Shown here: positions 2,219-54,066 of the stretch, in pieces
Numbering within the stretch: the stretch's first letter is position 1
Layout: the number at the start of each line of letters is the position of its first letter
Source: Candidatus Bathyarchaeota archaeon
GTDB lineage: Archaea > Thermoproteota > Bathyarchaeia > Bathyarchaeales > Bathycorpusculaceae
Reading direction: 5' to 3'
Assembly (NCBI GenBank): GCA_963770935.1
Contig: CAVYRJ010000016.1
Coordinates: forward strand, 59,304 to 123,303
Length of the DNA: 64,000 nucleotides
Position numbers and translations under genes: made by a program
The notes under the pieces: model-generated
Told to the model about the DNA's origin: nothing
The model's database searches: none
What the model saw: the letters and a program-made list of their open reading frames with translations, nothing else

Positions 2219-2557
2219 ATGGTTAAGAAAGAAGTTTTACTATGTGCTGCAATTATTTTGATGGGAACTCTGGATTGGCTGATAACTTTGGTGGGGATAG
2301 TGTTTTTTGGGGCAACAGAAACCAATCCTCTGCTTGCCAGCTTGACTCAATCAAATATGTTTCTATTCAGCGGTGTTAAACTAACAGCGATAACGCTGAC
2401 TGGACTATTATTCTATAGAGCCGAAACCAAAACCAACTGCACCAGCCAAATTTCGCCTTTTGCAAAAAAATTTCTAAATTCAGGGTACATCATATCCCTC
2501 TTTACGCTAATGGCTGTTGTATTAAACAATTTTGTTGCTATCGTTAAAGTGGCGTAA
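2219..2557 (+). CDS. Small membrane protein (DUF5658-like)
   Basis: Three hydrophobic segments with the LD..IT...G..E.NP...K pattern. Confidence 0.7.
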   Translation: MVKKEVLLCAAIILMGTLDWLITLVGIVFFGATETNPLLASLTQSNMFLFSGVKLTAITLTGLLFYRAETKTNCTSQISPFAKKFLNSGYIISLFTLMAVVLNNFVAIVKVA

Positions 2558-2612
2558 ATACTGGTTGCTGAAAAAAGATTTGATGTAGAATAGAGGCAAA
2601 AAAAGTTGGGAT

Positions 2613-3071
2613 TTAGTTAGTGCCGGTGATGTTAATTTGGACGCTAAAGTTTGTGACGTCAGCTATGGTTGGAGATACCGAAAGAGTGAAGGTTGCTGCA
2701 ACTGATTGTCCTGGTTGAAGTCTTGCTCCTTCTTGGCTCCATGTCAGGGTTATAGGTTCTTCTGCTCCTGCAGGAGTCCAGTTACTTGTTTCCATGCTTA
2801 GAGTAAGAGCAAGGCCACTGCCAGTGTTTTTTACATAGATTGTTCGAGTGATGTTTCCTCCTGCTGTTAAGGTTCCCCAATTTATGGAACTCAAAGAAGT
2901 AGTGCAAGCACTGTTTGAAAATACACCCAGATTTGCAGATGTGGTTACTTGTCCGCTAGATGATAGGCTTTGGCTTGTGGTTATGGCTGCAAAGGTTGTG
3001 AATGTTAGAGCGACTGCAATTAAAACTAAAATTATTACTGATGCTGTTACAGAGAGTTTTATTTTTGGCAT
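2613..3071 (-). CDS. Secreted beta-sandwich protein, candidate TasA/AbpA-like fibre subunit
   Basis: Signal peptide ending TTFA/A; Ser/Thr-rich N-terminal strand; motifs INWGTL.AG, IYVKNTG and LQPGQS; alternating beta-strand pattern; no C-terminal anchor. Confidence 0.6.
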   Translation of the reverse strand: MPKIKLSVTASVIILVLIAVALTFTTFAAITTSQSLSSSGQVTTSANLGVFSNSACTTSLSSINWGTLTAGGNITRTIYVKNTGSGLALTLSMETSNWTPAGAEEPITLTWSQEGARLQPGQSVAATFTLSVSPTIADVTNFSVQINITGTN

Positions 3072-3424
3072 ATTTTGTCCCCCGTAAATACCACGTGTAT
3101 CTTAAGTCTTAATAAATATTATTATCGTGTGTTTGCACTGTGCACTTGAACAACACGCCTACATAATTCAGCTATTTCCCATAAAACCACTCACAAGTTG
3201 AACGGCATGCATCAACCACAATATCAATATTGGATTGTCTTTCGTTCCCTTATTTTTGAATGAAAAAGTTCGGACAGTCCTCAAAATCGGATATAAACCA
3301 AAAATTTCCAATTACAGTCGCAACTAGCAATTAATAAACAACTCAAAAAACACTAAAAAGAAATACCGTTTGGCCTACAAAAGTTGACTCTTTAAGGTTC
3401 TGCCAGAAGCAACCAAAACAGGCT

Positions 3425-3438
3425 TGACTTCGAAGTCA
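3425..3438. promoter_or_regulatory. Perfect 14-bp palindrome TGACTTCGAAGTCA, candidate operator
   Basis: Self-complementary sequence in the divergent intergenic region 3072-3577. Function is inferred only. Confidence 0.35.
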
Positions 3439-3577
3439 GTCTGTTGAAAAACAGCAAAAAAAGTTATCAAAACTGATGTATTGCAGTTTTTGACATGTTG
3501 TTTTTTTCGCAACGTTGCTTTTATAGCGTGTAACAACATTTACGATTAACGATTAAAGAAAGGATGAGGTTAAGGAT

Positions 3578-4288
3578 TTGACGGTTCTAATTCAACGGAT
3601 TGAAGCACGTGAATCAGCGCAGTTAATTATTGCAGCATTAAATGAAGCGCCAGGAATAGGTCTCACTATCACCGAGATGAAGGACACTCTTGGCGAAATT
3701 CCAGTATTAGTCGTGGATGGCAAAAGCAGTGACCGAACAGTTGAGGTAGCTAAGAATTTAGGGGCAAAAGTTGTTTATCAAGATGGAAAAGGCAAAGGCG
3801 ATGCTTTAGCCAAATCTCTTGAAAACGTAGACCCAAACGTAAACTACATCATTCTTACTGACGCCGACTACACTTATCCCGCTGAATATGTTCCAGCGAT
3901 GATAAGGATTCTCGATGAAAATCCGCTTGTCGGCATGGTGTGTGGCAACAGACTCAGCGGAAACATTGACAAAAAAGCATTACATAATATTTTCCACATA
4001 GGCAATCAACTACTAGCATGGGCTCATAAAATGCTAAACGGAGTGCCACTTCAAGACCCATTAACAGGACTACGAGTAATACGAACAGACATTTTGAAGG
4101 GGTGGGTTATAAAATCCAAAGGATTTGATATCGAAGTCGAATTAAACCAAATGGTGGAACGACGAGGCTTTGAGATTGCAGAAATACCTATTGCTTATAG
4201 AGCACGCTTAGGCCAGAAAAAATTGAAAGTAAAACATGGCATCACAATACTCAAAAGAATACTGCTCGAAACAACCTTCAAGAATTGA
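3578..4288 (+). CDS. Glycosyltransferase family 2, polyprenol-phosphate glycosyltransferase (DPM1/AglJ-like)
   Basis: Motifs ALNEA, VVDGKSSDRT, GKGDA, TDADYTYP, DPLTGLR, FDIEVE, PIAYRARLG.KKL. Confidence 0.9.
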   Translation: MTVLIQRIEARESAQLIIAALNEAPGIGLTITEMKDTLGEIPVLVVDGKSSDRTVEVAKNLGAKVVYQDGKGKGDALAKSLENVDPNVNYIILTDADYTYPAEYVPAMIRILDENPLVGMVCGNRLSGNIDKKALHNIFHIGNQLLAWAHKMLNGVPLQDPLTGLRVIRTDILKGWVIKSKGFDIEVELNQMVERRGFEIAEIPIAYRARLGQKKLKVKHGITILKRILLETTFKN

Positions 4289-4584: not shown

Positions 4585-4791
4585 CTAAATGAAGCGTAGT
4601 AGAATAGTAAATAGGAAAGCAAGTCCGCATCCAATAGCGGCAAATCTCAGCCTGCTTTTTATAATTATGATTCTGCTTGAATATTCGGACGATACACTGA
4701 GAAGTTCAGAGGTAATGAGAAGTATTATGGCTGTGAGAGCTAGCCAGAGATTAAGGTCGGTGAGCGTTAGAGGAATGTCCATAGCAATCAC
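4585..4791 (-). CDS. Small two-TM membrane protein (paralog of 10578-10781)
   Basis: Shares PLTL.D..L.LA..AI.LL.T.EL and LRF.A with its paralog; begins 7 bp after the stop of 4799-6238. Confidence 0.8.
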   Translation of the reverse strand: MIAMDIPLTLTDLNLWLALTAIILLITSELLSVSSEYSSRIIIIKSRLRFAAIGCGLAFLFTILLRFI

Positions 4792-4798
4792 AATTTAT

Positions 4799-6238
4799 TT
4801 AATTAACCAAGAAAAAAGAAGCGAACTCTTTTTTGAAAATACTACGGGTATAGTCAATGAAGCTTTCTAAATCAGTCTCAGGAATCGCTTTATCAACGCT
4901 AGTCATTAGCGACTCAATGTTACATTTAAAAACTTCGGCGTTACCCAGGATTTGTAAAATACTTTCCATTTGATTTGTCTCTTTCTTGTTTTCTTTATCT
5001 CCAACTGTTTTACCAAGTATAATATCATTTAATACATAATACAAAAGAATTATGGCTTTTGTAGTAATGTAATTCAGAGCGCCTTCTTTATGGTCATTAT
5101 CGAGGCTTAAACTGTCGAAATACTCAAAAACACCTTTTAAGATGTTATACGCTTCTTCTGAAGTTGCTTTTGCATTCTGACTTTTTATAGCTGATGAGAT
5201 GTTGAAGAAATTCAAGTTCATCATAGGCATCGTTTGATTTCTGAAACTCAAAGCCTCCCCAAAAGGTTTAGAATAAGTTTCTAATAGTTCCCAATTAATT
5301 CGCTTCTTTTGCAAACCAACAAGAATATCAAAAGACAAATCAACGATGTTCATTGAAGCATTAATCATCTCTATCAGTTCCTTTTTTCTTATAGAGGCTT
5401 TGCCATAGGCCTCAATCAGTTTCTGCCGCTTCTCAAACAACTTATTGATAATTTTGAATGATATCGTTGTTGTTTTACCGTTGGGAGCAATTTTTATTTC
5501 TTGAATCATTGTAGGTTTACCCGCAGATTTTGCAATAGCACATGCTGCTGCATTGACAAGTGGGCAACCAAGCAAATAGACGCTCTTAAGGTTGTATTTT
5601 TCGCTATAGAGGTTTTTATAAAGAGAGCCAGTAATTTTCAGAATTATGTCGTTTTCGTTTATAGTTACTGCAATTCCTTTAGCCAAACAAAGCTCGCCAA
5701 GCAAGTTTGGTAATGCCTCGTCAAGTTCGCTGAGTGGGATTTTAGAAAAATCTGCATCAGGTTTTTGTTCAATTTTGTCCAAAATACATGCACCTGGAGA
5801 TGTTACTAGAAGCCCACTTGGTTTTTCAATCATGAATTTGCTACTTGCGATGTCTTCAATTTCTACTGTACTGTCCGTAAGTTCCGCAGGGATGAATGTT
5901 ACCGTTTCTTTGAGACCTGATAGATGTTCTGGCAAAAAAACATCTTTGGGATACGGAGGGATATTATATGCTTCATTCTTGGGGCTGAGCTGGTTGAGGA
6001 TTCTATCCAAGGTCATATAAGCAGGTAGAGTTGAGATTATTAAGAAATTGCTTTCAACATATCTCAAGGGTGTTATGAACAAGAAAAGTGCTCCCCAGAA
6101 AATTAACCCTAATCCAGTAATACAAATTATTTGTGAGCCCAAAAAAAGTGATAAGAAGAACATAGAGATACCTAAGATCAAAAACAAAAGTGCAGTTACG
6201 AGCGAATTGCGTTTTGGTTGTTTAGGTGTAATTTTCAT
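4799..6238 (-). CDS. Membrane protein with two N-terminal TMs, a V4R-like domain and a C-terminal helical extension (paralog of 10785-11573)
   Basis: Shared motifs FW..L.LF.TP, Y.PP, F.P, GL..T.PG and GC.L..A.ACA.AK...KP..IQ. Confidence 0.75.
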   Translation of the reverse strand: MKITPKQPKRNSLVTALLFLILGISMFFLSLFLGSQIICITGLGLIFWGALFLFITPLRYVESNFLIISTLPAYMTLDRILNQLSPKNEAYNIPPYPKDVFLPEHLSGLKETVTFIPAELTDSTVEIEDIASSKFMIEKPSGLLVTSPGACILDKIEQKPDADFSKIPLSELDEALPNLLGELCLAKGIAVTINENDIILKITGSLYKNLYSEKYNLKSVYLLGCPLVNAAACAIAKSAGKPTMIQEIKIAPNGKTTTISFKIINKLFEKRQKLIEAYGKASIRKKELIEMINASMNIVDLSFDILVGLQKKRINWELLETYSKPFGEALSFRNQTMPMMNLNFFNISSAIKSQNAKATSEEAYNILKGVFEYFDSLSLDNDHKEGALNYITTKAIILLYYVLNDIILGKTVGDKENKKETNQMESILQILGNAEVFKCNIESLMTSVDKAIPETDLESFIDYTRSIFKKEFASFFLVN

Positions 6239-12669: not shown

Positions 12670-13133
12670 TCCTTGAGCTATCTATAATTGATTGAAAGAC
12701 TAAATATTTGAAAATTACGGAGGAAGCAGTTTATTGAAGGTTCAAATTTTTTGCTGAAAAAACCCATCGAGTAAGTCTACGTGAGGTTAGTTGTTTCCTA
12801 CCTTGAAAACGATCTGCGGATATCAGGACTATTTTGTTTCAATAAAACTTTCAATCAAAATAGTGGAAATAATATGACTACACAAGACATGGCCATGCCT
12901 ATACAAGTTTTAACTTTGTTTATTCTAGCACAGATTAGTGAGTTGGGTTTACCACAAATATACAAGGCAAACATATTTTTTGGGGATTCATGCAAAATCC
13001 GCTTCGCATGTTTAGTTAAACCAGGTTCGCAAAATCGCAAATGAAATTTACAAAAAACCTACAAGACTTCTCAAAAAGAATTAAATTAGGTGGAACCGAA
13101 GTTTGTTTAAAATTCAAGAAGAGAGAATATAAA

Positions 13134-15061
13134 ATGAATAATTTAAATAAAATAGTGAACTTGGGGAGTTTTAGAAAACTCAAAAAAACCTCAGCCCTAA
13201 GCATAAGCTTACTAATAATCATAAGCTCCTTGTCAATTTTCGGCGCAGCATCAATACAAGTCACCGCAGCAGCCGACACATTCACATTCGGAAATACATC
13301 AATCGGAACAATGACAAACTCTTTCACAACCGACAGAGACGCAAGCCGATTCCAACTAACCCAAAACGGCCAACTCCAAACCATAACAGTATACTACACA
13401 AACACAGGCTTTAACGCCAAAACCGCAATCTACGCAGACAACAATGGAGCACCCTCCACCCTAATAGCGCAAAGCAACAGCCAAACAATAACCCAAAGCG
13501 GCTGGCAAACATTCACCCTACCACAAACCACCCTAACCCCAGGATACTACTGGCTATGCACAGTCTCAAACAACCCCTCCTACGGAAAAATGGCAGCTAC
13601 ATCCACAAACCAACACGCATGGAAATACTCACCTTACTCAGCAGAGTACCCAGCAACCTTTGGAACACCCCGCTGGATACCAACAAACCGCCACAAGCAT
13701 ATACGCCACCTGCACCACCACAGCAGTAGTCAACCCCACCCCAACACCCACCCAACATCTACCCCAGCACCAACCGCGCTCCTACACCTGCGCCAGGCGG
13801 CGGAACAGCCACAAATAACAGTGTCTGCAGTAGTAGCCTCCTCATACTCCGGCACACATACCCCGAAGCCAAGCAATCGACGGAGTAGAATCAACCGCCA
13901 ACTACTGGGGAACAACGTTCAGCAAACGGTCTTCCCCAATGGCTACAACTTGACCTGGGCACACAAAAAAGCATCAGCCAAATCGTTACCCACTTCTACG
14001 ATGGGAACTCGAGAACATACACCTATTACATCCAAGTTTCAACTGACGGCTCCAATTGGAACACCGTTGTATCCACAAAAACTGGAAATAGCGTAGTAAC
14101 TGACTCATTCACCCAAACAACATGTAGATACGTTAGAATAACAATAACTGGCAACACAGCAAACTTAGCCGCACACATAGAAGAAATAAAAGTCTATCAA
14201 TCAGGCAGTTCATCTCCAGCACCTACTCCAACACCTACTCAAACACCCTATCCCACTGCCACTCCTACTCCAACTCCTTATACACCCAATTATGGAGGTA
14301 ACGGTATTTGGACTCAAGCTGGTTCTGATTTAGCTCCGTCGCAATGCTCATACTACAGACAACAAAAAATCACAGAAATTTACATGCAAGTCGGTTACTG
14401 GAAATCAGACTCCTCACTCTACTATCTAGTATCCTCAAGCCAAATTCAAACTGCCGTAGCAAACGCCCACGCAGCCGGACTAAAGATCTACGCGTGGGTA
14501 ACCTCGCAAGCATCATACGGAACAACAATCAACATAGGCGCATCAAATCTACGCCAAACCGCAATCAACAATATGGTCAACCTAGCAAGAGACTACAACT
14601 TCGACGGCATCGCAGACGATCTTGAAGAATTGCAATGCAGCGGCTATTCAGATTACGTATCATACTTCAACGGTGCAGCATCAGCACTGCATACAATAGG
14701 AAAACAATACTATACAGCAGTAGTAGCTTATCTGCCGCCAAACATGGGCGCTTCACTTTTCAGCACGATTCACGTAGACAGAATACAACCCATGCTGTAT
14801 GCTTATCCGTCTGGACTGCAAGAAACCAAGCTTAAGGAGCATGTTGATTTCTTTTTGCGTTACTCTTCTTCGCCTGTTGGTTTAGCGATTCATTCTGACC
14901 ATCCGCCTTATGGTACTTTAGTTGACGCTATGAGTTGGGTTGATGAGCAGTTAGCTACTGGAACACCAACTGGCAAGCTTGCGGGCATTGATATTTTCTG
15001 GGTCCATGGCATGACTCAGAGTCAATGGAACGCATGGAGCAACTGGAACACCAAAAACTAG
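13134..15061 (+). CDS. Secreted modular protein: beta domain + P/T linker + F5/8 type C (CBM32-like) + P/T linker + GH18-like TIM barrel; several indels between 13670 and 13925
   Basis: Joining frames gives AIDG...YWGT...LPQWLQLDLG...YYIQVSTDGSNW...RYVRITI...IEEIKVY (discoidin), in frame from ~13925 with ORF 14384-15061 (AHAAGLKIYAW, YNFDGIADDLEE). Start codon uncertain. Confidence 0.75.
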
Positions 15062-15077
15062 GATGATCCAAAATGGG
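14317..15077 (+). repeat. Direct repeat copy 1 (GH18-like domain plus sequence past the stop); copy 2 lies 1395 bp downstream
   Basis: 14317-14727 appears identical to 15712-16122; patchy divergence follows; identity resumes through TAGGATGATCCAAAATGGG. Confidence 0.9.
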
Positions 15078-16456
15078 AGTAACCTCAAAAAACATCATTC
15101 CTATTTTTTTCATAATAATAGTTATAGCTTCAAGCCTTTTCGTAGAATCAGCTACCGCGCAACAAAACAGATTCATTACGTATGGAAAAAGTACATCTTC
15201 TGATTCAATATTAGGCGATTCGCGTTCTTCTACTCCAATACTGACCTATTCGCCATCTCCCACTCCCTTTCCAATATTGCCAGCTGCTCCTACGCCTACT
15301 TCCTTGACACTTCGAACCCCTGGAGCAACAACACAGACAATAACATTAACCCCAACTCCTGTCCCAACTAGCAGTTACTTTATTTCACCCTTGCCAACTC
15401 CATCTCCAACAGCCAATCCAACTCCATCTCCAACAGCCACTCCAACTCCAGCACCAACAGCTACTCCAACTCCAGAACCAACAGCTACTCCAACTCCAGA
15501 ACCAACAACTACTCCAACTCCAGAACCAACAACTACTCCAACTCCAGAACCAACAACTACTCCAACTCCAGAACCAACAACTACTCCAACTCCAACCCCC
15601 ATCACCAACAACTACTCCAACTCCAACCCCATCACCAACAACTACTCCAACTCCAACCCCCATTCCAACTCCTATTCTATCCAGTGGGAACACTAACGGT
15701 TTATGGTCTACAGCTGGTTCTGATTTAGCTCCGTCGCAATGCTCATACTACAGACAACAAAAAATCACAGAAATTTACATGCAAGTCGGTTACTGGAAAT
15801 CAGACTCCTCACTCTACTATCTAGTATCCTCAAGCCAAATTCAAACTGCCGTAGCAAACGCCCACGCAGCCGGACTAAAGATCTACGCGTGGGTAACCTC
15901 GCAAGCATCATACGGAACAACAATCAACATAGGCGCATCAAATCTACGCCAAACCGCAATCAACAATATGGTCAACCTAGCAAGAGACTACAACTTCGAC
16001 GGCATCGCAGACGATCTTGAAGAATTGCAATGCAGCGGCTATTCAGATTACGTATCATACTTCAACGGTGCAGCATCAGCACTGCATACAATAGGAAAAC
16101 AATACTATACAGCAGTAGTAGCCTACTTAGCTCCAAACATGGGCACAGCGCTCTTCAGCACAATTCACGTAGACAGAATACAACCCATGCTATACACCTA
16201 TCCGTCTGGACTACAAGAAACAAAAGCAAAGGAACACATTGATTTTTATTTGCGTTACTCTTCTTCGCCTGTTGGTTTAGCGATTCACTCTGATTATCCA
16301 GCTTACGGTACTTTGGCAGATGCTATGAGTTGGGTTGATGAGCAGTTAGCTACTGGAACACCAACTGGCAAGCTTGCGGGCATTGATATTTTCTGGCTCC
16401 ACGGGATGACTCAGAGTCAATGGAACGCATGGAGCAACTGGAACACCAAAAACTAG
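15073..16456 (+). CDS. Secreted protein: signal peptide + long P/T stalk + GH18-like domain; one frameshift near 15600
   Basis: ORF 15073-15696 joins ORF 15779-16456 if one C is removed from the C-run near 15600, reading ...PILSSGNTNGLWSTAGSDLAPSQ. Confidence 0.8.
15410..15660 (+). repeat. 24-bp tandem repeats encoding TPTPEPTT, followed by two ~30-bp units
   Basis: ACTCCAACTCCAGAACCAACAACT is repeated several times. Confidence 0.9.
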
Positions 16457-21934: not shown

Positions 21935-21935
21935 T

Positions 21936-23225: not shown

Positions 23226-23260
23226 TACTGTTCGACCTTATGACCTTGAATAGTTTTGTG

Positions 23261-28050: not shown

Positions 28051-28117
28051 TCTTGGCTTCCGGAAAAAATTGCATAATAATAAATAATTATTATCAGTCT
28101 CCTATAAAGTTCTTTAG

Positions 28118-40229: not shown

Positions 40230-42300
40230 TTAAGGCTTAATAGACTTCCTTTTGCGAATGACTAAGATTACGACAATGGCGGCTATAATAACTATTGCAG
40301 CAGCTAAAGCGTAGAGGATTGTTTCAGTATTTAGTGTTCCGGCAGATGAAGTTGGAGATGGGCTGGCAGTAGTAGTTAGAGTTGGCGAAGGAGACATTGT
40401 TGGAGTAGGTGTGGGAGATGAAGTAGCTGGAGCAGTTGGTGTTACGGTTGGGGTCGCAGTAGGTGATTGAGTCGAGGTTGGAGTAGAGGTTGGTGTTGGG
40501 GTAGGAGATGGAGACGGAGACGGACTTGGAGACGGAGATGGACTTGGAGACGGAGACGGACTTGGAGAGGAGATGGACTTGGAGATGGAGCGGAGATGGA
40601 CTTGGGGTTGGAGTAGGAGCCAAGGGTAGCTTGGTAAGCTGCTATTTCTTTAATGTGGACTGCAGTGTTTGCTGTGTTATGTGTTACGATAATCCTAACA
40701 TACCTAGCCATAACTTGTGCAAAGCTATCAGAAACTGCACTACCGCTAATCTTTGATGGAACAACAGTTGTCCATGTTGAACCATCGGTGGATACAGCAA
40801 TAGAGTAAGTATATGCCCGTGTATCAACATCGTAGAAGTGTGTCGTAACTTGATTAACTGGCACTAAAGTCCATAAATCAAGAGTCAAAGATTGTGGAAA
40901 ACCTTCAGCGCTGGACGTGCCCCAATAGCTTGACAAATCTGAATCGAGTGCTTTTGATGGATTATGGTCCGAATCAAGGTAGTTAGATGCTACAATGCCG
41001 TGTACTGGAATTTTTACCTGAGGAGGTTGAGTAGTGGGTGCAGAAACAGTTGGAATAGGGACCTCTGGAGGAGTCAAAGGCGAAAACACCGAAACACCAG
41101 GATTTCCATACAAATCGTTAGCAGCAACGCCGATCTTGTTAATTGTAGCGGAACTCGGAATATCTACTTTCCAAGTATTGGTTCCAATAAGAGACGCAGC
41201 GGGATGAGAGTATGCCCCGTTATTGTAAAGTACGGCTATGTAAGGATTATTATTCCATAGCGTTTCATTTGAACTGATAATATAAGTGCTGCTGTTGCGT
41301 GATACAGTAAAAGTCGGGGGTGTAACATCATTGTAACCTAAAGCTAACTGCATAGCTTGAGCAGCAGTGACATACTTGAAAGTTACATCAGTGTAGATAT
41401 TAGCTATACTGTTGAGAGTGCTCTGCAGATAATTAATTTCTCCAGTCATATTGTCATAGCTGTGCATGTAGAAAGAATAAATACTACTTCCTTGGTTCCG
41501 AGCTTTGGTGAAAGCACTTTGAATATCAGCGTAATAGGAAAAGTGCGCTGTCTGAACTTGCATAATGGTTCATACCCTGGGTATTCATTTGATGGATACC
41601 AGCCGCTGGCAGTGTGTAATGGAGAGAAGTCGAAAGGAATCCATTGTTCAAGCCAATTAGATAAGGGAGTTGATTGTAAATCCCAGCCGCTTCTGAAAGA
41701 TGAAGGATAAAAGCTGCGGTTTATTATCATTTTGTCTAATGCACTCATTTGATAGCCAGGATAGCTTGCGTCTGGTCCGTGCTCGGCAATTTGCCAAATG
41801 CCATTAGAGTAATATTGGAAGTGATGATGATATTCAATCGAGTCGCCGTATGACTGGATTTGCGTTCCCCAATTTTTTCGCATCAAATCAAGTAATGCTG
41901 TATAACCAGAGAAGCTTGTAAGATGTGTAGCATTGTAAAAAAGACTCTTTGAAGTTAAGTAATCCATTTCAACAAACCATGTTAGTTTAATTCCGTTACT
42001 ATAACTATCGTGAGTGGTTTGGCGAAAACTAGAGTCAAAGACACGGGTTACTGATGAGACAGGATATGTTGAAAAAAGATCTATGTCCATATCTGGCAGT
42101 GCATCAGTACTATTAATGAATTTTCCAGTTGGGCTTTCGGTATCAATACCTGTGACGACGTAAACTGTTTTTTGAATAGGTGCCGCTTGAACTTTAGCAT
42201 ATGTTACTGCACATGATAGAACGATTATTGTGCATAGGAGAGCTGCAAGGAGATATGTTTTATTTATTTTTGGGGGTTTGATTGTCAATTTTTTATTCAC
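40230..42300 (-). CDS. Membrane-anchored protein: CE4/NodB-like deacetylase domain + F5/8 type C domain + P/S/T linker + TM; several frameshifts
   Basis: Three overlapping ORFs: GIDTE, LTWF, EYHHH, FRSGW, FYMHS; discoidin motifs (ALD, STDGSTW, ARYVRI). A manually read tail, ILYALAAAIVIIAAIVVILVIRKRKSIKP*, ends at 40230. Confidence 0.7.
40503..40603. repeat. 6/18-bp low-complexity repeat encoding (PS)n on the minus strand
   Basis: GGAGACGGAGATGGACTT units. Confidence 0.85.
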
Positions 42301-45259: not shown

Positions 45260-46075
45260 CTATGAAATTGCCTTACTTGCTTTCCAGTTCTTGTATGTCG
45301 AATCAACAGTTATTGCACTTTTTAGAAGCGTGCCACCATTGGTTAGTGATATAAGATACCTAATATCCTTAGGTAGACAGTGCCCACCGATCCCCTCCTT
45401 GGCATCTAGAAGGTCGATGTTCCATTTTGTGTTGCATGCTTCTCGAACTTGCTCGAAGCTCAAATCAAGATCGTTACAGATCATTTTAAGTTCTTCGGCA
45501 AAAGATATTTGCACAAATCGATAGGCATTTTCTGCAACTTTTGTCATTTCTGCAATTTCTATAGAAGGAACTACGTGTAAGGGTATCCCATTGTCCTCAT
45601 AGAATTCCCTGCCCAATTTGAGACTTTTTTCATCAATCCCGCCTATCACTCTTTTCTGTTTTACGCCATGCTCTAAAGGTTCAGCACCATAAAACCTATG
45701 GGGCACATGGACTAATGCAATTCTTTTTTCAAAAATGTCTTCATAGATTTTTCTCGAAGTAAATGGTACAATTGTACTTTCAATAGAAACTAAAGAGGGC
45801 TTGCCATCAACTTTAGCAATTTTTTCGCAACAATCAAACACTGGGACTAAGTCTGGTGTTCCATCTTTAGATAGCCGAGTGGAAACGCATACGACATAAA
45901 CATCCATGGAGGGTACTTCAGACCAGTTTGTTGTAGCTCTAGAAAGTCCGGCATCTTTCGCCTTGTTCACTGCAGAAGAAGCTATATCGTAACCCCAAAC
46001 TTCGTGTTCACGTACCATGTACAAAGCAGTTGGCAGACCAACTTCACCTAGTCCTAATACACAGATTTTCAACAT
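45260..46075 (-). CDS. UDP-sugar 6-dehydrogenase family protein (WecC-like), short form lacking the C-terminal domain
   Basis: GLGEVGLPTA, ESTIVP, AEMTKVAENAYR, GIGGHCLPKD. Confidence 0.85.
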   Translation of the reverse strand: MLKICVLGLGEVGLPTALYMVREHEVWGYDIASSAVNKAKDAGLSRATTNWSEVPSMDVYVVCVSTRLSKDGTPDLVPVFDCCEKIAKVDGKPSLVSIESTIVPFTSRKIYEDIFEKRIALVHVPHRFYGAEPLEHGVKQKRVIGGIDEKSLKLGREFYEDNGIPLHVVPSIEIAEMTKVAENAYRFVQISFAEELKMICNDLDLSFEQVREACNTKWNIDLLDAKEGIGGHCLPKDIRYLISLTNGGTLLKSAITVDSTYKNWKASKAIS

Positions 46076-46310
46076 AATACCTCAACATTAATAGTAATTA
46101 TCCTTGTTTCAAGCAGTTCTTATTTTCTTCAAAATACCTATTTTAAGATTTTGTACTCAGGATACATATTTTATTTACATAGTATTTTGTCGACTCTCAA
46201 AAGATCTTAAAACCCTACTTAATACCTGTAAAGCAATTAGAATCTCTGGATTGACTATCATCTGAAGAACCGCAGTGTGGGATCAACATTTCTAAAGAAA
46301 CCGCATTTTT

Positions 46311-47519
46311 CTAAAGTTGGGGCAATGTATTATTTGAAATAGCATAATACATATCTTCAAATCTCTTTCCGACAGTTTCCCAAGAGTAATTCTCTGTCGC
46401 AAATTTCTTTCCATTTTTTCCCATTTCCGCTGAAATCTCAGGATTGTCCAGTATTTTCTCTAAAGCATCTACTAATTGTGAAACACTTCCGTATTTGACA
46501 ACTAGGCCAAACTTACCTTTTTTTACAAAATCCATAGCAGGAGCGTCAGATACAATCACTGGTTTGCCCATCAAGCCTGCTTCTAAGGGGACAATTCCAA
46601 ATCCTTCTTGAATGCTGTCATAAACAACAACAGAAGCAGAATTGTAAGCCGCCAACACTTGTTTGCGGTTCAGAGATCCAGTAAAAATGACTTTGCTTGT
46701 TAAACTAAGGTCTATTACAATTTCTTTTAAAGTACCTAAGAAACCATCATCTGGACCTGCTATCACCAATTTCATATTATTCTTTCTTTGAGAAATAGAA
46801 GCAAAAGCCTTTACAAGGATATCAATACCTTTTTCGCAGTGAACTCTACCCAAATAAAGAACAACTTCAGCATCATCTATTCCAAAGAATTTTCTAAAAT
46901 CAATTGTTTGAGAGAAATCTGAAAAATCTGAAGGAGTCACCCCGTTGGGTACAATGGTAATCTTATTTCGTTTTATTCCAGCATTGACATATTGAGTTGC
47001 TTCAAATTGTGATAGAGCATGTAGTGTGCTTGCGTCTTTCACTAATTTTTTTCCAAAACTGAACTCAAAAACTCTTCGTAATATTGACCAATCCCAAGAT
47101 TCTTTCTGGTAAGAAAACTCTCCGTGAGATGACAAAACATATGGAACACGGTTTCTATTAAGATAATAGAAGATTATATTCTGAAAAGTTCTGTATTCAT
47201 GAAGATGTATGACGTCAAAAGAGCTAACGTTTTTTCGCAAAGCTTGAATCATTTTTGGAGTAATGAAAATACCGGCAAAAAGTCTAGCTATGCTTTGAAA
47301 ATAAAAAATTTCAATGCCATCTATAATTTGATGTTTTTCCTTAATTTTGGAGTTAGAGTGTATGTCTAAAGCGTCTGAAGTATATACAACAACTCTATGA
47401 CCTCTTTTGACTAAGTACTTTGAAAGTTCATAGGTGCATTGAACTGGACCTCCAAAGCTTACGGCAGGATAGAAATATTTTGTGATCTGAAGAATATTCA
47501 TGGCTTTCACAGACAACAT
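46311..47519 (-). CDS. Glycosyltransferase family 4
   Basis: FGGP, VPNGV, YLGRVH.EKG, AGPDDG, EGFGIVPLEA. Confidence 0.9.
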   Translation of the reverse strand: MLSVKAMNILQITKYFYPAVSFGGPVQCTYELSKYLVKRGHRVVVYTSDALDIHSNSKIKEKHQIIDGIEIFYFQSIARLFAGIFITPKMIQALRKNVSSFDVIHLHEYRTFQNIIFYYLNRNRVPYVLSSHGEFSYQKESWDWSILRRVFEFSFGKKLVKDASTLHALSQFEATQYVNAGIKRNKITIVPNGVTPSDFSDFSQTIDFRKFFGIDDAEVVLYLGRVHCEKGIDILVKAFASISQRKNNMKLVIAGPDDGFLGTLKEIVIDLSLTSKVIFTGSLNRKQVLAAYNSASVVVYDSIQEGFGIVPLEAGLMGKPVIVSDAPAMDFVKKGKFGLVVKYGSVSQLVDALEKILDNPEISAEMGKNGKKFATENYSWETVGKRFEDMYYAISNNTLPQL

Positions 47520-47564
47520 AGAATTAGTGTAGGGTACAGCATTTCTCGATTAAATATTTATGGA

Positions 47565-48173
47565 CTAATTTGAAGGGATTACCACGTTAAACCACATGTT
47601 AACTGAAGCCGAAGATAATCCCTTTTCAGATTCCCAGCCAAAGACATATTCTTCAGAACTGTTGTCCTGAACCCAAAGTTCAAAAACCATAATGAAGGAG
47701 TGATTCATTGAAATTAAAGTATCAATATTAACTGGTTGATCGTTGACCAATAGTTGGTCTATAACAACAGAACCATTGTGTGCTTCTGCATCCATTATGC
47801 TCCAAGAGAAAGGGATCAACACACTTTGATTGACAGATAGTGAAAGAGGAAACGCGACAAAAGAGGTCAAGTTGCTGGGCTTGTTCTCCTGATCATCAGG
47901 TAGTTCCATTATAGAGTTAAGGAGTTTTACCCTTACGCTAACATTCTGTGCGTATCCAAGGTGATTATGGAGATAGATAAACCAACTACTTAGTGTGCCA
48001 ACATTGATATCGGAATTTTCGTTGGAAAAATATGCATTGGCAGTTTTGTCTTTTCCAAGCAAACCTAACTCGATAAACCGCTCCTCCTGAGTTGGCCAAA
48101 CGCTACTTATTACAGCTACTATAACAATAAGCAACAGGATAAGTCCCGCAATAATAATAACTGTTTTATGCAT
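47565..48173 (-). CDS. Membrane-anchored DUF1616-like protein
   Basis: N-terminal TM followed by P..EERFIELGLLG...A..Y and NH.G; C-terminal ELW...W..V. Confidence 0.7.
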   Translation of the reverse strand: MHKTVIIIAGLILLLIVIVAVISSVWPTQEERFIELGLLGKDKTANAYFSNENSDINVGTLSSWFIYLHNHLGYAQNVSVRVKLLNSIMELPDDQENKPSNLTSFVAFPLSLSVNQSVLIPFSWSIMDAEAHNGSVVIDQLLVNDQPVNIDTLISMNHSFIMVFELWVQDNSSEEYVFGWESEKGLSSASVNMWFNVVIPSN

Positions 48174-48667
48174 TAATTAGATCAACCAACGTAAACATAC
48201 AGTGCATATTTTCAACAAGCGGATTGCACCGAGATCTGATATTATTTATCAAAATATGTTTAATGCTCATATACTGGATGGGATGAAAACTGATCGACTA
48301 AGCAATTTCCGTGTTATCACAAATAAGCTTGTCCTTCCTCAAAAGAAACTACCTTAAGAACCACGATAAATTTCAGCCTATCAAACGTTTTCCCAATTGG
48401 TGAGTTAAAAAATCACCAATTTTCACGTTAAAAAGTTTCTATAGTGATTTCTTCTATCTTTAGAACTTCTTCAAAGACTATCTATCTTGGATCTGCCCAT
48501 AAAATCGTACCAAAACCTTTTGAAAGGCTCACAATTTCGTTAGACAAGCAAGACAAATCATCTTTGGAACAAATTCCTTTAACATATAAGCTGTCAAATC
48601 GACAGGAGCCAATGGACTTTGATCTACATCTAATACAAAAAAGGAAAGTATGTTGCCTAATAAGCTA

Positions 48668-49627
48668 TTATGTTAACTGTTGCTGTATCCATTTGTAGGT
48701 TTTTGTCAAGCCTTCCTCAAGTGTCACTTCGGGTTGCCAATTAAGCACCTTCTTGACAAGCGTCAGATCTGCATTTCTGCCCCTAACGCCTTGCGGCGCA
48801 TTGAGATCATATGTTTTACTTATATTTTTTCCGGCGATTTTAATTACAATGTCCGCCAATTCATTAATCGTTACCAGCCTATCTGAACCTATATTGAGCG
48901 GTTTATTATGATCTGATTCCATGAGCAGCACTGTAGCTCTAACTGCATCATCAACGTAACAGTATGATCTCGATTGTTTGCCGTCGCCCCAAATTTCAAT
49001 TGAGCCAGGATTAGGAGCCTCAGCAACTTTTCTGCATATTGCAGCAGGTGATTTTTCTCTGCCGCCCTTATATGTTCCTTCAGGCCCATAGATGTTATGG
49101 TATCGTAGAACCCTTATGTCCATATTATAATCACGCTGGTAAGCTTCGCACATTTTTTCTGTGTATAGCTTTTCCCAACCATAAAAATTATCAGGGTCAG
49201 CCGGATAAGCATCTTCTTCGCGTAGACCTTCAATGTTTGGGTTTGTCTGTCTATAGGTTGGATAAACACATGCTGAACTTGAGAAAAGGTAACGTTTGAC
49301 TTTTCCTAGCCGAGACGCCTCAAGCATTAGAGTATTGATCAGAGTATTATCATGCATGACTTCGGCTCCTATTTCAGTTATAAAGCCAATTCCACCCATG
49401 TTAGCTGCTAAATTGTATACTTTGTCAATTCCTTCAACAGCCTTGAAACAGTTGTCTTTTTCACGAAGATCAAGCATTTTTCTTTCAGAATAATAGTCCG
49501 TTATGTAATCATCAAATTTGATATCAACAACACGCACAAAGTGACCTTGTTTCAAGAGATACCGTGCTAAGTGACTGCCGACAAAGCCGCCTCCACCCGT
49601 AACTAAAACTCTATCCATCATGATCAA
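48668..49627 (-). CDS. GDP-mannose 3,5-epimerase-like SDR
   Basis: LAANMGGIGFI, FSSSACVYP, YGWEK, RYHNIYGPEGTYKGGREKSPAAICRK, PQGVRGRN. Confidence 0.85.
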   Translation of the reverse strand: MIMMDRVLVTGGGGFVGSHLARYLLKQGHFVRVVDIKFDDYITDYYSERKMLDLREKDNCFKAVEGIDKVYNLAANMGGIGFITEIGAEVMHDNTLINTLMLEASRLGKVKRYLFSSSACVYPTYRQTNPNIEGLREEDAYPADPDNFYGWEKLYTEKMCEAYQRDYNMDIRVLRYHNIYGPEGTYKGGREKSPAAICRKVAEAPNPGSIEIWGDGKQSRSYCYVDDAVRATVLLMESDHNKPLNIGSDRLVTINELADIVIKIAGKNISKTYDLNAPQGVRGRNADLTLVKKVLNWQPEVTLEEGLTKTYKWIQQQLT

Positions 49628-50909: not shown

Positions 50910-50920
50910 AATACTTACAT

Positions 50921-51859
50921 CTATCCCAACATTGTTTTAGAATCAAGGTCATTTCTATTTTGAAAGCTCTTTTTAAGAAAATTGAATGTTTCAAGTGCTT
51001 GATCTACTGTTGACACTCCAACAACCATACCTTCAAGATTTGGCAGACTTTCAATATATTCAACTGCGTCGGGAAGTCTAATGTAGCCAGCAGCTAGTAT
51101 GCTCATTGCTATGACTTTACATTCAGGGATTTTTGCCAATGCTTGTTCACAGCTAGTTTTTGAGGGATTCATCTGGAATCCAACTTTGTTAAAAGAGGAC
51201 ACAAGCTCAATTTCCCCAAAGTCAACATCCCAATCAGAAAATTTATTCACTAAGTAAGTAAAGTTTCGAGTCTCAAATCCCGGTTTTATGCCCAATCTTG
51301 AGACAAAATGAATATACGATTTAATTAACCAATCTAAATTGAGGGCAACGGCCATATCAGTAACAACTTCATGAAGCAGTATAGAAGATAGCTTTTGCTT
51401 CTTTCCTATTGAAGATCTAATTCTTGATTCTTCATACTTCAAATATGTTTTCATAAGATCTTCAGGGTCCATGCGGACAATACCGCTAATACCGCTGGCA
51501 ACTGCACTTAAATTTCCTGACATCAAAATCTGTCCAGCTAATTTTTTTCCCAACCCCAGGGTACCTATATGTGTTGCCAACCTTACATATTCATAAGCAT
51601 ATGGAACAATAGCATGTAGCTCTATTGATGGATCATCAATCTTTTCACATATTATCCTCAAAGTAGAGAGGGTGGTATCGCTCACAGAAAACATGAACCC
51701 ATTTGCACCGTTCTTAATGGATTCCAAAACTATTTCAGCTGCACATTCTGCTTGACTTATTTTGCGTCCTCTGTCTCTTGCTCTATCTTCAGTTAGATGA
51801 CTAATTCCATGAAAAGGGTTATCACCCACGAGGATCAATTTCTCTGCCTTATGCAACAA
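50921..51859 (-). CDS. Uncharacterised TIM-barrel protein, distantly aldo/keto-reductase-like
   Basis: LVGDNPFHGISH, NKVGFQM, IAMSILAAG, VVGVS; overlaps the upstream oxidoreductase gene. Confidence 0.6.
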   Translation of the reverse strand: MLHKAEKLILVGDNPFHGISHLTEDRARDRGRKISQAECAAEIVLESIKNGANGFMFSVSDTTLSTLRIICEKIDDPSIELHAIVPYAYEYVRLATHIGTLGLGKKLAGQILMSGNLSAVASGISGIVRMDPEDLMKTYLKYEESRIRSSIGKKQKLSSILLHEVVTDMAVALNLDWLIKSYIHFVSRLGIKPGFETRNFTYLVNKFSDWDVDFGEIELVSSFNKVGFQMNPSKTSCEQALAKIPECKVIAMSILAAGYIRLPDAVEYIESLPNLEGMVVGVSTVDQALETFNFLKKSFQNRNDLDSKTMLG

Positions 51860-52892
51860 TTTTTTTTGCCTCTTTTCTTACTAGATCAATAATCTGATCT
51901 ACTTTAGACGCTTCTAGAAAGCTAGGATCAGCCTTACCACTGTTAAGAATTGAATTAATATATGATTCATCTTCCCTGTAATACTCAGAATCCCCGAGTA
52001 GATAATTCACATGGTCATCGAGATCATGCTTGAACCATTTTTGAGGAGCCTCATTTCTCAGTTTTAGATCCACCGTGTAATCATTGACCTTTAAAGTTCC
52101 ATCATGTCCAGTTATTTTTAATCCAAAATTTGGCATTCGGTAGTTATCCATACACCAAGATGCATGAATAGTACCTTCTAAATCGAATTTTTTAACTTCA
52201 AAGTCGACAGAGTCTTCCCCTTCTTGATCAACTATTGATTTTGAAAAGGCTGACTTTACTTCGAATTCATTGAAATACCACAATGCTAAATCAATGACGT
52301 GAGAGCCCAAATCAGACAATACTCCACCTCTTAAAGTTGACTTCTTGGAACCAGGTTGAACATTGGAAAAATCTGATGAGTAGGCATATGCATCAAAAGA
52401 AATTAGGTCTCCCAATATATTCTGAGTTAACATTTTTTTAACTTTCAGAAAGGTGACGGAGAATCTTTTCATGTAACCGACCATATTGACGCCTGCAACG
52501 GTTCGGGCTAACTCGCATAGCTCCTTTGATTTCTCCCAACTTGAGGTCAATGTCTTTTCTACAAAAATACTTGTTGCTATATGATTAGTAAGCAGGTTCT
52601 TAACAATGGGAAAATGACTAGGTATTGGTGTTGTCACATATACTGAACTTAGATCCAAACCAGCGAGTTTTTCCACATCATCGACTACTTGAGCAGACTT
52701 GAAAAGTCTCTTGACGAGTCTACGGAGTATGGAACTTTTGTCGCATAATGCCACGATCTCAACGTTAGGCATTGTATTTAGAATACTAGCATGAAGTAAA
52801 CCCATTTTACCGAGTCCAACAACTGCAACCTTAATAGTTTTCATATTAGAAATCTCCAGATAATGTTCTAAAGCTAATGCCATAGCTTTCAA
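51849..52892 (-). CDS. Gfo/Idh/MocA family oxidoreductase (start probably 52844)
   Basis: VGLGKMG, TTP..SH, FVEK, VGYMKRF, GGVLSDLGSHVID. Confidence 0.9.
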   Translation of the reverse strand: MKAMALALEHYLEISNMKTIKVAVVGLGKMGLLHASILNTMPNVEIVALCDKSSILRRLVKRLFKSAQVVDDVEKLAGLDLSSVYVTTPIPSHFPIVKNLLTNHIATSIFVEKTLTSSWEKSKELCELARTVAGVNMVGYMKRFSVTFLKVKKMLTQNILGDLISFDAYAYSSDFSNVQPGSKKSTLRGGVLSDLGSHVIDLALWYFNEFEVKSAFSKSIVDQEGEDSVDFEVKKFDLEGTIHASWCMDNYRMPNFGLKITGHDGTLKVNDYTVDLKLRNEAPQKWFKHDLDDHVNYLLGDSEYYREDESYINSILNSGKADPSFLEASKVDQIIDLVRKEAKKIVA

Positions 52893-53358
52893 TCGACAAA
52901 ATGTCTAAACTCAATAAACGTGTCAAATTCTTAGCAAGTACTTTCAAGCAGCCAAACTCCAATAGAATAAAGAACCCCTTAAGAAGCTTAAAGAAATTAA
53001 CAATACTTGTAATTTATTCAGACTAAACCTTAATTTAATATTTGGAAGTTTAAATTGAACTAATATTGAAGGCATACTCTACAAAGTCCCTCTCTGACAA
53101 GAGCAGACAAGCAACACGGAGTTTACAATAAGCATTCAATACTCTTACTTATCCCAACATCCCCAATACATTCCAGAAGCATATTTATAAACACAGAACT
53201 GCAGAAGCAAACAGGCAAACTCTAACTGTATAAAAAACATCCATGTCCGAATTTGAGATTTGTTCTATTTTTCTCAACAGCACTATGCCAAAGATGTAAG
53301 GAAAGCTAACAATAAAACTAATTATCATAAGAAAGGGTCTTTCATCAATAATCAGAAA

Positions 53359-54066
53359 CTAATAATTCGTCTCTAATAATATGCGCCTCAAAATTTCAGC
53401 ACCATTCTTAACTCCAAGTTTTTTCTCACCTAATCTTTCTCTATATTTAATTGGAACTTCCACGATGCCAAACCCTTCCCGCTCTACATAACTATTAAGC
53501 TCTACCTCGACGTCGAAGCCCCTGGATTTTACTTTCCAGTTTCTAAGTATTTTCGCTCGCACAACTCGTAACCCTGTTAAAGGATCTGCTAATGTGATTC
53601 CATTTAGCAGATTGTGGGTAAAAGCAATGAGCCTATTGCCCAAGTAAAAAACGCTGTTCAACACCTTCATATCTTCGTAACCGCTAAATCTGTTACCACA
53701 GACCATACCCACATCAGGAGATTTCTCCAAAATCCGAATCATCTCAGGAACATATACAGCCGGATAAGTATAATCTCCATCTGTTAAAACAATATAATCA
53801 ACCATTGAATCTATATGCGCAATGCCTTTCGATATCGCATCTCCTTTACCTAGTCCATCTTGTAAAGCGATATCAGCACCCAAATTCTTGGCTATCTCAA
53901 CTGTTCGATCGGTGCTTCTTCCGTCAACTACCAGAACACGAGGACGCTCAAGGATATCCATTAGCTCAGCTACTGTGAGCCCTATACCTTCTTCCTCGTT
54001 CAACGCAGCTATGATAACTTGCGTCGGGGGGATACCCAGTCCTTCTGCTTTCGCCAAAACAATCAA
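53359..54066 (-). CDS. Glycosyltransferase family 2 (DPM1/AglJ-like), paralog of 3578-4288
   Basis: IIAALNEE.GIGLT, TDGDYTYPA, VGMVCGNR, DPLTGLR, ILLET. Confidence 0.9.
   Translation of the reverse strand: MIVLAKAEGLGIPPTQVIIAALNEEEGIGLTVAELMDILERPRVLVVDGRSTDRTVEIAKNLGADIALQDGLGKGDAISKGIAHIDSMVDYIVLTDGDYTYPAVYVPEMIRILEKSPDVGMVCGNRFSGYEDMKVLNSVFYLGNRLIAFTHNLLNGITLADPLTGLRVVRAKILRNWKVKSRGFDVEVELNSYVEREGFGIVEVPIKYRERLGEKKLGVKNGAEILRRILLETNY

Follow-up and report, generated by a model that had tools for sequence, protein, structure and literature searches.

The DNA considered here, which we call the window, is a stretch of 64,000 nucleotides (contig 16:59304-123303) from the 1.98-Mb, 18-contig genome of a probable Bathyarchaeia archaeon. 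Its interval 2219-54066 is a near-continuous block of glycan-related genes of about 52 kb, largely on the minus strand, referred to below as the island, in which an original prediction made from the DNA letters had seen an integrated biofilm-matrix system. Using the open reading frame (ORF) listing and Pfam and NCBIfam scans of the window proteins, we found nearly every gene of that prediction at or near its predicted place (Table 1). Besides a membrane glycosyltransferase (GT) of family GT2, the island holds the other predicted GT or GT-like genes, namely four GT2 (five in all), three GT4, a weak GT1-like gene and one encoding a DUF2206 protein. It also holds the four predicted GNATs, all Acetyltransf_6/FemAB-like and one of them a fragment, the O-acetyltransferase, which is a hexapeptide acyltransferase, five methyltransferases, a CDP-sugar C-methylation pathway, a surface protein of immunoglobulin (Ig)/PKD repeats with a transmembrane (TM) anchor where an adhesin had been announced, a CE4-like surface protein and three GH18-like genes that are secreted or anchored. 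In the NCBIfam scan no window protein reaches an equivalog cut-off.

The island occupies a slot bounded by conserved genes, YdjM on one side and a CBS-domain gene (54877-56061) on the other. Orthologues of the CBS-domain gene occur in 58 of the 61 genomes of our genus set, often adjoining an AglJ-like GT2, and the island itself is bracketed by two inverted short GT2 paralogs of the AglJ/dolichol-phosphate (Dol-P)-mannose-synthase type, 62% identical to each other. GC content is 0.35-0.39 across most of the island, the PKD repeats and the genes rich in proline and threonine (PT) being the exceptions, against 0.40-0.43 on the right flank. A TFIIB gene in the window (Pfam), homologues whose source is named as Candidatus Bathyarchaeia archaeon and the taxa given by Atlas agree with the assignment to Bathyarchaeia. 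No tRNA gene was found at the island borders and no integrase or transposase Pfam match in the window, and therefore a classical mobile element is not indicated.

In order to see how far this gene content is shared, six congener loci were fetched and 58 window proteins compared with them by tblastn. Two congeners, G046 and G014, have the same slot, with CBS and YdjM genes 64-67% identical to those of the window and lying 32-41 kb apart, and hold in it, within 33-43 kb, a protein labelled unk150, PIG-L, an AglJ-like GT2, a GFO-type oxidoreductase, a gene for a 312-residue protein, several GT2s, a GT4, a DUF2206 protein (31-32% identical) and the two-gene TM cassette; their GTs are only 25-40% identical to those of the window, and GH18-like, CE4-like, PKD, C-methyl pathway and radical SAM genes were not found there by tblastn. 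A third, G001, shares the island ends (AglJ-like GT2 76%, TM cassette 72-77%, PKD protein 51%) and not the middle. GH18-like and CE4-like genes were not found in the syntenic loci of G046, G014, G045, G068 or G001.

By contrast with G001, it is the middle of the island that has a near-collinear copy, at 50-86% identity, on contig 4 of another species, G427. The copy runs through the hexapeptide acyltransferase (74%), PIG-L (74%), cytidylyltransferase (86%), C-methyltransferase (77%), SDR (85%) and methyltransferase (83%), then a GT2 (50%), a GT4 (64%), DUF2206 (62%), a GH18-like gene, a GT2 (57%) and a GT4 (63-66%), then three intact CE4-like genes (51-58%), a GT4 (67%), a DUF1616-like gene and the membrane GT2 (35%), followed by a GNAT, a radical SAM gene (54%), the TM cassette, a PKD gene (47%) and a long GH18-like gene (59%). 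G427 carries three GH18-like and three CE4-like copies interleaved among GT genes. The 80-kb region taken for this comparison showed neither a CBS nor a YdjM gene. In two further genomes, G385 and G428, a GH18-like gene also lies within a glycan cluster, in G385 beside a homologue of the membrane GT2.

So large a cluster has not come together by chance, and a second species has a collinear copy of it. The conserved flanks, the exchangeable content and the mosaic make-up form the pattern of a replacement island, and we regard it as somewhat more probable than the alternatives taken together that this is a replacement-type flexible genomic island making, exporting and tailoring a cell-envelope glycan. 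Replacement flexible islands for exposed structures have been described in Haloquadratum and in other aquatic prokaryotes (PMC4535781, PMC4033161). The locus resembles them in that the same slot holds different genes of the same function class (surface glycoproteins, envelope and glycan synthesis) and in its mosaic structure, the ends being shared with one relative (G001) and the middle with another (G427); it differs in that our comparison is between species of a genus rather than strains, and in that the variant in the window bears anchored CE4-fold and GH18-like enzymes. It fits a rare variant of the replacement envelope-glycan island in which glycan synthesis is coupled to such enzymes.

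Table 1. Features of the island and of its immediate surroundings (window coordinates unless a contig is named)
Feature	Position	Strand	Basis
Small membrane-anchored Ig-like protein, 152 aa	2613..3071	-	Weak DUF7507/choice_anchor_D matches
Left bracketing AglJ/DPM1-like short GT2, putative Dol-P-hexose synthase	3578..4288	+	NCBIfam, PDB match
Two-gene cassette: 479-aa protein (two N-terminal TMs) and 68-aa 2-TM protein	4585..6238	-	Hydropathy, Atlas
PKD/Ig-repeat surface protein, 1261 aa	6520..10305	-	PKD-type Pfam matches
Secreted/anchored N-terminal domain, F5/8C (CBM32-like), PT linker, GH18-like domain; one frameshift	13041..15061	+	
Second GH18-like gene: signal segment, PT repeats, GH18-like domain (15779-16456)	15073..16456	+	
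Sugar-nucleotide/tailoring block	16872..31328	- (19061-20197 and 25931-26722 on +)	Pfam/NCBIfam
Acetyltransf_6/FemAB-like GNATs	16872-18011, 19061-20197, 30219-31328, fragment 28118-28639		Pfam
Hexapeptide acyltransferase	18201-18860	-	Pfam
Methyltransferases	21936-23225, 24414-25556, 25931-26722, 27156-28050 (split), 43068-43853		Pfam
GT2, 321 aa	31554..32519	-	Pfam/NCBIfam
GT1-like, weak, split	32594..33448	-	Pfam/NCBIfam
GT4, 371 aa	33986..35101	-	Pfam/NCBIfam
DUF2206 polytopic membrane protein, 740 aa, putative GT-C-type glycosyltransferase	35131..37353	-	Pfam
GT2, 298 aa	37850..38746	-	Pfam; 57% identical in G427
GT4, split at about 39113-39137	38781..39928	-	Pfam; 63-66% identical in G427
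CE4-like surface protein: signal/TM, CE4-fold barrel, Ig-like, F5/8C (CBM32), PS/PT linker	40324..42300	-	
Intact GH18-like protein, N-terminal signal/TM segment	43985..44926	-	
NDP-sugar dehydrogenase (truncated), GT4, DUF1616-like membrane protein, GDP-fucose-synthase-like SDR	45260..49627	-	Pfam/NCBIfam, G427 comparison
GT4, 402 aa	46311..47519	-	Pfam/NCBIfam; 67% identical in G427
Membrane GT2, 385 aa	49752..50909	-	Pfam/NCBIfam
Conserved pair: 312-aa protein and GFO/IDH/MocA oxidoreductase (UDP-GlcNAc 3-dehydrogenase-like)	50921..52892	-	Pfam/NCBIfam, tblastn
Right bracketing AglJ/DPM1-like short GT2, adjoining the conserved CBS-domain gene	53359..54066	-	NCBIfam
Frameshift sites	27703-27758, 33432-33448, 39113-39137, 41446-41563, ~13891-14096, 15352-15696, 11690-12669; contig 1:41646-42778		

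The CE4-like gene is a single gene broken by at least two frameshifts into ORFs 41446-42300 and 40442-41563, both of which are spanned by a metagenomic homologue, P0122 (688 aa, 74% identity). The first of these ORFs has no Pfam match at E<=0.01, and two of 47 longer homologues carry a precomputed PF01522. Since the window gene is frameshifted, P0122 was modelled in its place, with a predicted local distance difference test score (pLDDT) of 72 overall and above 85 in the N-terminal domain. Using VIA-align, residues 43-327 of this model match polysaccharide deacetylases (3qbu, Z 15.2, root-mean-square deviation (rmsd) 3.9, 226 residues aligned; 1z7a, Z 14.5; 3rxz, Z 13.9) and the chitin deacetylase 5z34 (Z 12.9), in agreement with the CE4-like surface protein of the original prediction, the CE4 fold being predicted by way of the homologue. 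The barrel is followed by an Ig-like domain, a CBM32 module, a PT linker and a C-terminal TM helix; when the whole 688-aa model was submitted to Foldseek, CBM32/GH29 architectures dominated and the result was uninformative for the N-terminal domain. Conserved positions of the family, among them candidates for the Asp-His-His metal triad and the catalytic Asp/His of CE4 enzymes, are D53 (24/24 ungapped rows) and E55 (22/24), D113, D154, H160, D190 and D225 (27/27 each), H159 and H161 (23-24/27) and R204 (26/27).

The GH18 likeness of the three predicted GH18-like genes (domains at 13940-15061, 15779-16456 and 43985-44926) comes from profile comparison. PF00704 matches with 17 bits, below its gathering score of 29.6, and a profile of 48 family sequences finds solved GH18 enzymes in the PDB, chitinases among them: 4wiw (1.8e-13), 5gzu (2.8e-13) and 3co4 (5e-12). 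In the family motif D159-G-x-x-D163-D164-x-E166, D159 is present in 46 of the 48 sequences, D164 in 43 and E166 in all; compared with DxxDxDxE, the Asp-x-Glu pair is kept and the middle Asp position is A, N or H. Pfam scans of the same 48 members touch GH18 in eight (E<=0.01), GH114 in five and GH85 in three. The first two genes form a tandem in which a PT linker precedes each GH18-like domain and an F5/8C module also precedes the first. The first has an open frame at 13940-15061 and an intact 671-aa orthologue in G427; the second is frameshifted within a 24-nt PT repeat, and its GH18-like domain is a 98% duplicate of the preceding one. Read-through of a stop as pyrrolysine, considered when one TAG was flagged in each of three copies, was discarded, as 13940-15061 is unbroken to its single end stop; the flagged stops are taken to fall at the ORF ends or past them.

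Both families are rare. Of 1.84 billion cluster representatives searched, 101 match the GH18-like family at E<=1e-3; it was found in none of 40 relatives in a first draw and, by family profile, in eight of the 401 genomes of the class set, our own included. The CE4-like domain occurs in two of the 401, our own genome and G427, where the three copies are 698-703 aa long. The original prediction had allowed that the secreted proteins might be lineage-specific insertions, and a reading along these lines would have the glycan island host unrelated nutrient-acquisition enzymes (for chitin, peptidoglycan or necromass) inserted at a recombination hot spot. The scarcity of both families and their absence from the five syntenic loci named above agree with it, as do a GH18-like copy outside any glycan cluster and the combination of CBM32 with catalytic barrels, which resembles secreted glycosidases. 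Three observations speak against it: the proteins are tethered by a TM anchor at the C-terminus and so are not freely secreted, Pfam scans of the window found no sugar transporter or catabolic genes nearby, and the interleaving with same-strand GTs is conserved in two species. We consider this explanation improbable. The enzymes are not random passengers, standing in the same order among the GTs in G427; their interleaving there, together with their restriction to two and eight of 401 genomes, indicates that the extracellular enzymes were co-inherited with the GT cluster, and the conservation of this arrangement argues that they work on the product of the island.

The same coupling speaks for the integrated biofilm-matrix system of the original prediction, in which a hexosamine exopolysaccharide like poly-N-acetylglucosamine (PNAG) or Pel would be extruded by the membrane GT2, partly deacetylated by the CE4-like protein and trimmed by the GH18-like ones, with a fibre and the PKD adhesin completing the matrix. 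In two species the genes of the extracellular CE4-fold and GH18-like proteins stand interleaved among GTs and are inherited with them; GH18-like genes lie in the glycan clusters of G385 and G428 as well; five of the 48 GH18-like members touch GH114; and a hydrolase and a deacetylase within a biosynthetic locus are the hallmark of pgaABCD, as annotated in E. coli K-12. Pel and fungal galactosaminogalactan loci likewise hold hydrolase and deacetylase genes. The island is like pgaABCD in encoding a membrane GT2, a CE4-type deacetylase fold and a TIM-barrel hydrolase with biosynthetic genes; it differs in that no PgaD/IcaD-like partner was identified, that the deacetylase and the hydrolase are two distinct proteins, both anchored at the C-terminus and bearing CBM32, and that many additional GTs and dolichol-type genes are present.

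It is the membrane GT2 itself that fits this system poorly. A membrane GT2 exists where the original prediction had placed a synthase of PgaC/IcaA topology, and its best NCBIfam model is indeed PgaC_IcaA (TIGR03937; residues 12-355, E 1.1e-21), but with 77.3 bits against a cut-off of 422.3 the PgaC identity is not supported. Kyte-Doolittle hydropathy shows a single hydrophobic segment at its N-terminus and two or more at its C-terminus, against two and three to four in PgaC. In a MAFFT alignment the D-G-D of E. coli PgaC at the DxD position is replaced by D-A-G, and by D-A-A in the G427 homologue, whereas the homologues in G385, G046 and G014 retain DxD; at the QxxRW position the Q-R-L-R-W of PgaC is replaced by Q-K-T-I-R, and relatives have QxxRR without the Trp. 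Its best solved relative is 6yv7 (E 4.2e-23, residues 21-257), followed by Dol-P-mannose synthase, and no processive synthase is among its 23 PDB matches at E<=0.01. The structure 6yv7 is that of PcManGT, a non-processive membrane GT2 mannosyltransferase of Pyrobaculum calidifontis, which the title of a cited paper ties to N-glycan biosynthesis (PMC10569066). Both proteins have a GT-A domain followed by few TM helices; the match is limited to the GT-A part, and the window protein differs in its extra N-terminal TM segment and degenerate DxD. The membrane GT2 is moreover only 35% identical between the two islands, against 50-86% for its neighbours.

For the predicted fibre-like subunit the matches are generic. 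The 152-aa Ig protein gave an AlphaFold2 model (pLDDT 88) of a helix at residues 8-30 followed by a beta-sandwich. Foldseek places FimA first (E 9e-4, TM-score 0.35-0.43, rmsd 6-7 A), and VIA-align gives generic PapD/MSP/ASH-type Ig domains at Z 8-9, with AbpA (7ueg) at rank 38 (Z 6.3, rmsd 3.7, 102 residues), the Tafi pilus at 6.1 and RbmA at 6.0, the last three values falling in the range that VIA-align itself calls common. Like TasA of Bacillus and the AbpA bundling pili of Pyrobaculum, this is a small secreted or anchored protein with a beta-sandwich fold; it differs in that its 7ueg match ranks below generic Ig domains and in having no Peptidase_M73/TasA Pfam match. The family has 140 relatives at 49% identity or more among the matches listed and occurs in 49 of the 61 genus genomes, with up to seven copies each, often in tandem; in several genomes a copy adjoins an AglJ-like GT2. 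The 80-kb region around the G427 island contains no member of the family. The pattern of archaeal class III (prepilin) signals is K/R-G/A; such a signal was considered for this protein and rejected by eye, its N-terminus having K-L/I-S before the hydrophobic helix. We see here a generic Ig sandwich of a multi-copy family that shows no specific likeness to TasA or AbpA in these searches and may or may not act as a fibre. Among the components predicted to co-occur in other genomes, GT, CE4-like and GH18-like genes do so in G427; the fibre was not found in the region taken there. The coupling of CE4-like and GH18-like genes to the GT cluster stands; the specific analogy with PNAG or Pel, the fibre and the biofilm role are not supported by the present analysis, and we hold the integrated matrix system to be unlikely.

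The PKD/Ig protein begins with a hydrophobic segment and is anchored by a TM segment at its C-terminus; it has a stalk rich in PT, 13 N-x-S/T sequons and 31% Ser+Thr. A repeat search found three 852-nt repeats of 94-100% identity within it, longer than the period limit of 500 of Tandem Repeats Finder, and relatives at 47-51% occur in G001, G427 and G428. The gene is flanked by the two-gene TM cassette and by a paralogous cassette at 10578-11573, the small protein being of 67-68 aa. The 4585-6238 cassette has no Pfam or NCBIfam match; its 479-aa protein has an Atlas lead to DUF7982 (score 0.92), and relatives of the cassette are found in the glycan loci of G046, G014, G001, G427 and G385. Next to these genes and inside the island lies an odd conserved passenger, a frameshifted lactate/malate dehydrogenase-like gene (11690-12669), of which the G427 island holds a fragment and G428 a 78% relative, placed there beside the genes for PKD and GH18-like proteins.

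A different direction is indicated by the bracketing GT2s and by DUF2206. The best NCBIfam model of both short GT2s is AglJ (TIGR04182), with 1.2e-43 and 149.6 bits for the left one and about 1e-39 and 136.8 bits for the right one, against a cut-off of 325, and the only PDB match of the left one at E<=1e-5 is Dol-P-mannose synthase 5mlz (2.5e-8); neither has a TM segment by hydropathy. The family is multi-copy, occurring in 55 of the 61 genus genomes at E<=1e-20 with up to nine copies. In our own genome it is found in five places, including C4:154943, C4:156136 and C9:197514. The inverted pair brackets the island both here and in G001, and it could permit inversion or cassette exchange. The DUF2206 protein, single-copy in our genome, matches PF09971 (1.4e-44) and secondarily DUF6541 (8.3e-11), shows some 15-17 hydrophobic segments together with a soluble domain at the C-terminus, and has a lead in Atlas, a language-model resource, to a cluster named "Dol-P-Man protein mannosyltransferase domain" (0.97). 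DUF2206 occurs in 33 of the 61 genus genomes, and by hand count 30 of 44 full-length copies have an AglJ-like GT2 on their contig at a distance of up to 25 kb, mostly 9-13 kb, the remaining 14 being partly on short contigs. No paper on DUF2206 was found in the literature. The DUF1616-like single-TM protein (47565-48173) has six N-x-S/T sequons in 202 aa and keeps its place in G427, with a GT4 on one side and the membrane GT2 on the other; in Atlas, DUF1616 and DUF6541 share a cluster that is near DUF2206.

The AglJ-like brackets and the linkage of DUF2206 to such GT2s across the genus point to Dol-P-based glycosylation, and these dolichol-type genes point to glycoprotein or envelope glycans at least as much as to a shed matrix. 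The Agl N-glycosylation of Haloferax volcanii uses the Dol-P-hexose synthases AglJ and AglD and an external Dol-P-mannose-using transferase, AglS. The island shares with such Agl sets the short GT2s nearest AglJ/Dol-P-mannose synthase, a linked polytopic membrane protein and many soluble GT2, GT4 and tailoring genes; it differs in scoring well under the cut-off (150 against 325 bits) and in having AglB and a flippase on other contigs, and DUF2206 is to our knowledge not an Agl family. In our genome AglB (STT3) matches lie only on contigs 1 and 5, the contig-1 gene being split over three frames and adjoining a Glycos_transf_4 gene (AglH-like, GlcNAc-1-P-transferase-like), and the only Polysacc_synt (Wzx-type) gene is on contig 4. 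A second glycan cluster on that contig (95001-115000) contains a GNAT, NeuB (nonulosonic acid synthase), an Acyl_transf_3 protein, a beta-helix protein, the Wzx-type flippase and RmlA-D.

These genes raise the question of whether the island serves protein glycosylation (N- and/or O-glycans) only, the surface proteins being substrates and the GH18-like proteins enzymes of the endo-beta-N-acetylglucosaminidase type that cut N-glycans at a chitobiose core; an AglB-linked N-glycan pathway had also been named as the alternative to the original prediction. The likeness to AglJ and to PcManGT supports it, as do the lead from DUF2206 to protein mannosyltransferase-like clusters, the PT-rich linkers and sequon-rich surface proteins in the island, the pairing of AglB with a GlcNAc-1-P-transferase-like gene elsewhere in the genome and the three of 48 GH18-like members that touch GH85; a chitobiose core has been described in crenarchaeal N-glycans (PMC8993221). 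Against it, AglB and the flippase are unlinked to the island, and at least nine GTs with many tailoring genes exceed the agl clusters typically known. We also know of no role of an extracellular CE4-fold deacetylase in N-glycosylation. The AglJ and PcManGT likeness remains, AglB lies neither in nor next to the cluster, and an island restricted to protein glycosylation seems to us about as unlikely as the matrix system, or slightly more so.

Of the genes that would supply the sugars, the tailoring block from the hexapeptide acyltransferase to the methyltransferase is collinear in G427 at 74-86% identity. It includes a glucose-1-phosphate cytidylyltransferase (G1P_cyt_trans 2.1e-58), a Methyltransf_13/14 C-methyltransferase (Methyltransf_14 2.3e-62) and a second methyltransferase related to it; three further SAM methyltransferases, two SDR epimerase/dehydratases, the PIG-L deacetylase and a radical SAM/SPASM protein are also found in the island. 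The pair formed by the 312-aa protein and the GFO/IDH/MocA oxidoreductase is 48-55% identical in G046, G014 and G001, where it adjoins an AglJ-like GT2. The 312-aa protein (50921-51859) has 2070 relatives at E<=1e-5 and no Pfam or NCBIfam match; it probably represents an enzyme of sugar modification that has escaped recognition.

Seven or more genes of the island are broken in the assembly, by splitting or truncation. Outside it, AglB, the AglH-like gene, a fragment of PolB and some flanking genes are split too. Contigs of related wetland and peat populations have one base fewer at 41566 and at 41578, which restores the CE4-like frame; the comparison with sequencing runs used contigs only, the best source covering 39% of words, and is uninformative for the uncovered parts. 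Because related contigs and G427 orthologues are intact where checked, the breaks are probably for the most part errors of an indel-rich assembly. Contigs of a sediment metatranscriptome library, X20, cover 40552-42207, as the CE4-like gene of an approximately 94%-identical relative, and others are near-identical to the GH18-like gene at 44364-44596 and to the NDP-sugar dehydrogenase at 45255-45550, which is suggestive of expression of these three genes.

Returning to the replacement-type envelope-glycan island that we favour, its working can be proposed in five steps. Cytoplasmic enzymes would make unusual activated sugars, turning CDP-glucose into a C-methylated deoxyhexose and adding a uronic acid and amino sugars that would be acylated or aminoacylated by the FemAB-like GNATs and methylated. 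The soluble GT2 and GT4 enzymes would then assemble an oligosaccharide on a dolichol carrier, while the AglJ-like enzymes would charge Dol-P with hexose; DUF2206, taken as GT-C-like, would use this Dol-P-hexose outside the membrane, either for glycan extension or for glycosylation of Ser/Thr-rich surface proteins. Flipping and any N-linkage would be provided by genes elsewhere, Wzx on contig 4 and AglB with the AglH-like gene on contig 1. At the surface, the CE4-fold and GH18-like proteins, anchored in the membrane and each equipped with a module of CBM32 type, would bind, de-N-acetylate and cut a glycan containing N-acetylhexosamine (HexNAc). The product may be protein-linked, capsule-like or shed as matrix.

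Several points count against this interpretation. The Pfam scan recognised no flippase, polymerase or exporter, initiating phosphoglycosyltransferase or oligosaccharyltransferase in the island, so the pathway is incomplete by itself. DUF2206 has no solved relative even at E<=10, and its putative GT-C nature rests on DUF6541 similarity, hydropathy and the language-model lead. The 80-kb region from G427 showed no AglJ-like GT2, so the AglJ-like bracket is not universal. One of the four GH18-like copies of our genome has unrelated genes as its neighbours on contig 17; foreign polymers could be the substrates of the CE4-like and GH18-like proteins; and the broken genes may in part reflect real gene decay.

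We know of no experimental work on the cell envelope of Bathyarchaeia, and a literature search combining Bathyarchaeia with exopolysaccharide and glycosyltransferase gave no characterised envelope or exopolysaccharide locus among the matches listed, as far as their titles and the beginnings of their abstracts tell. The recurrent link between AglJ-like GT2s and DUF2206 suggests a new family of external glycosyltransferases in archaea. The anchored CE4-fold and GH18-like families are uncharacterised and travel with GT genes, and their proteins can be expressed and assayed without cultivation. A conserved slot whose content is exchanged between species is a pattern linked elsewhere to virus pressure on surface structures. 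It is possible, if doubtful, that archaea have in this island a rare equivalent of the systems that make deacetylated hexosamine exopolysaccharides (PNAG, Pel, galactosaminogalactan). A HexNAc-rich surface polymer would here be built through dolichol and DUF2206 in place of a synthase and porin, and would be partly de-N-acetylated by CE4-fold deacetylases and cut by GH18-like hydrolases, both membrane-anchored, CBM32-bearing and co-inherited with the GT genes; if so, these archaea of sediments and wetlands would have an adhesive coat that they can tune.

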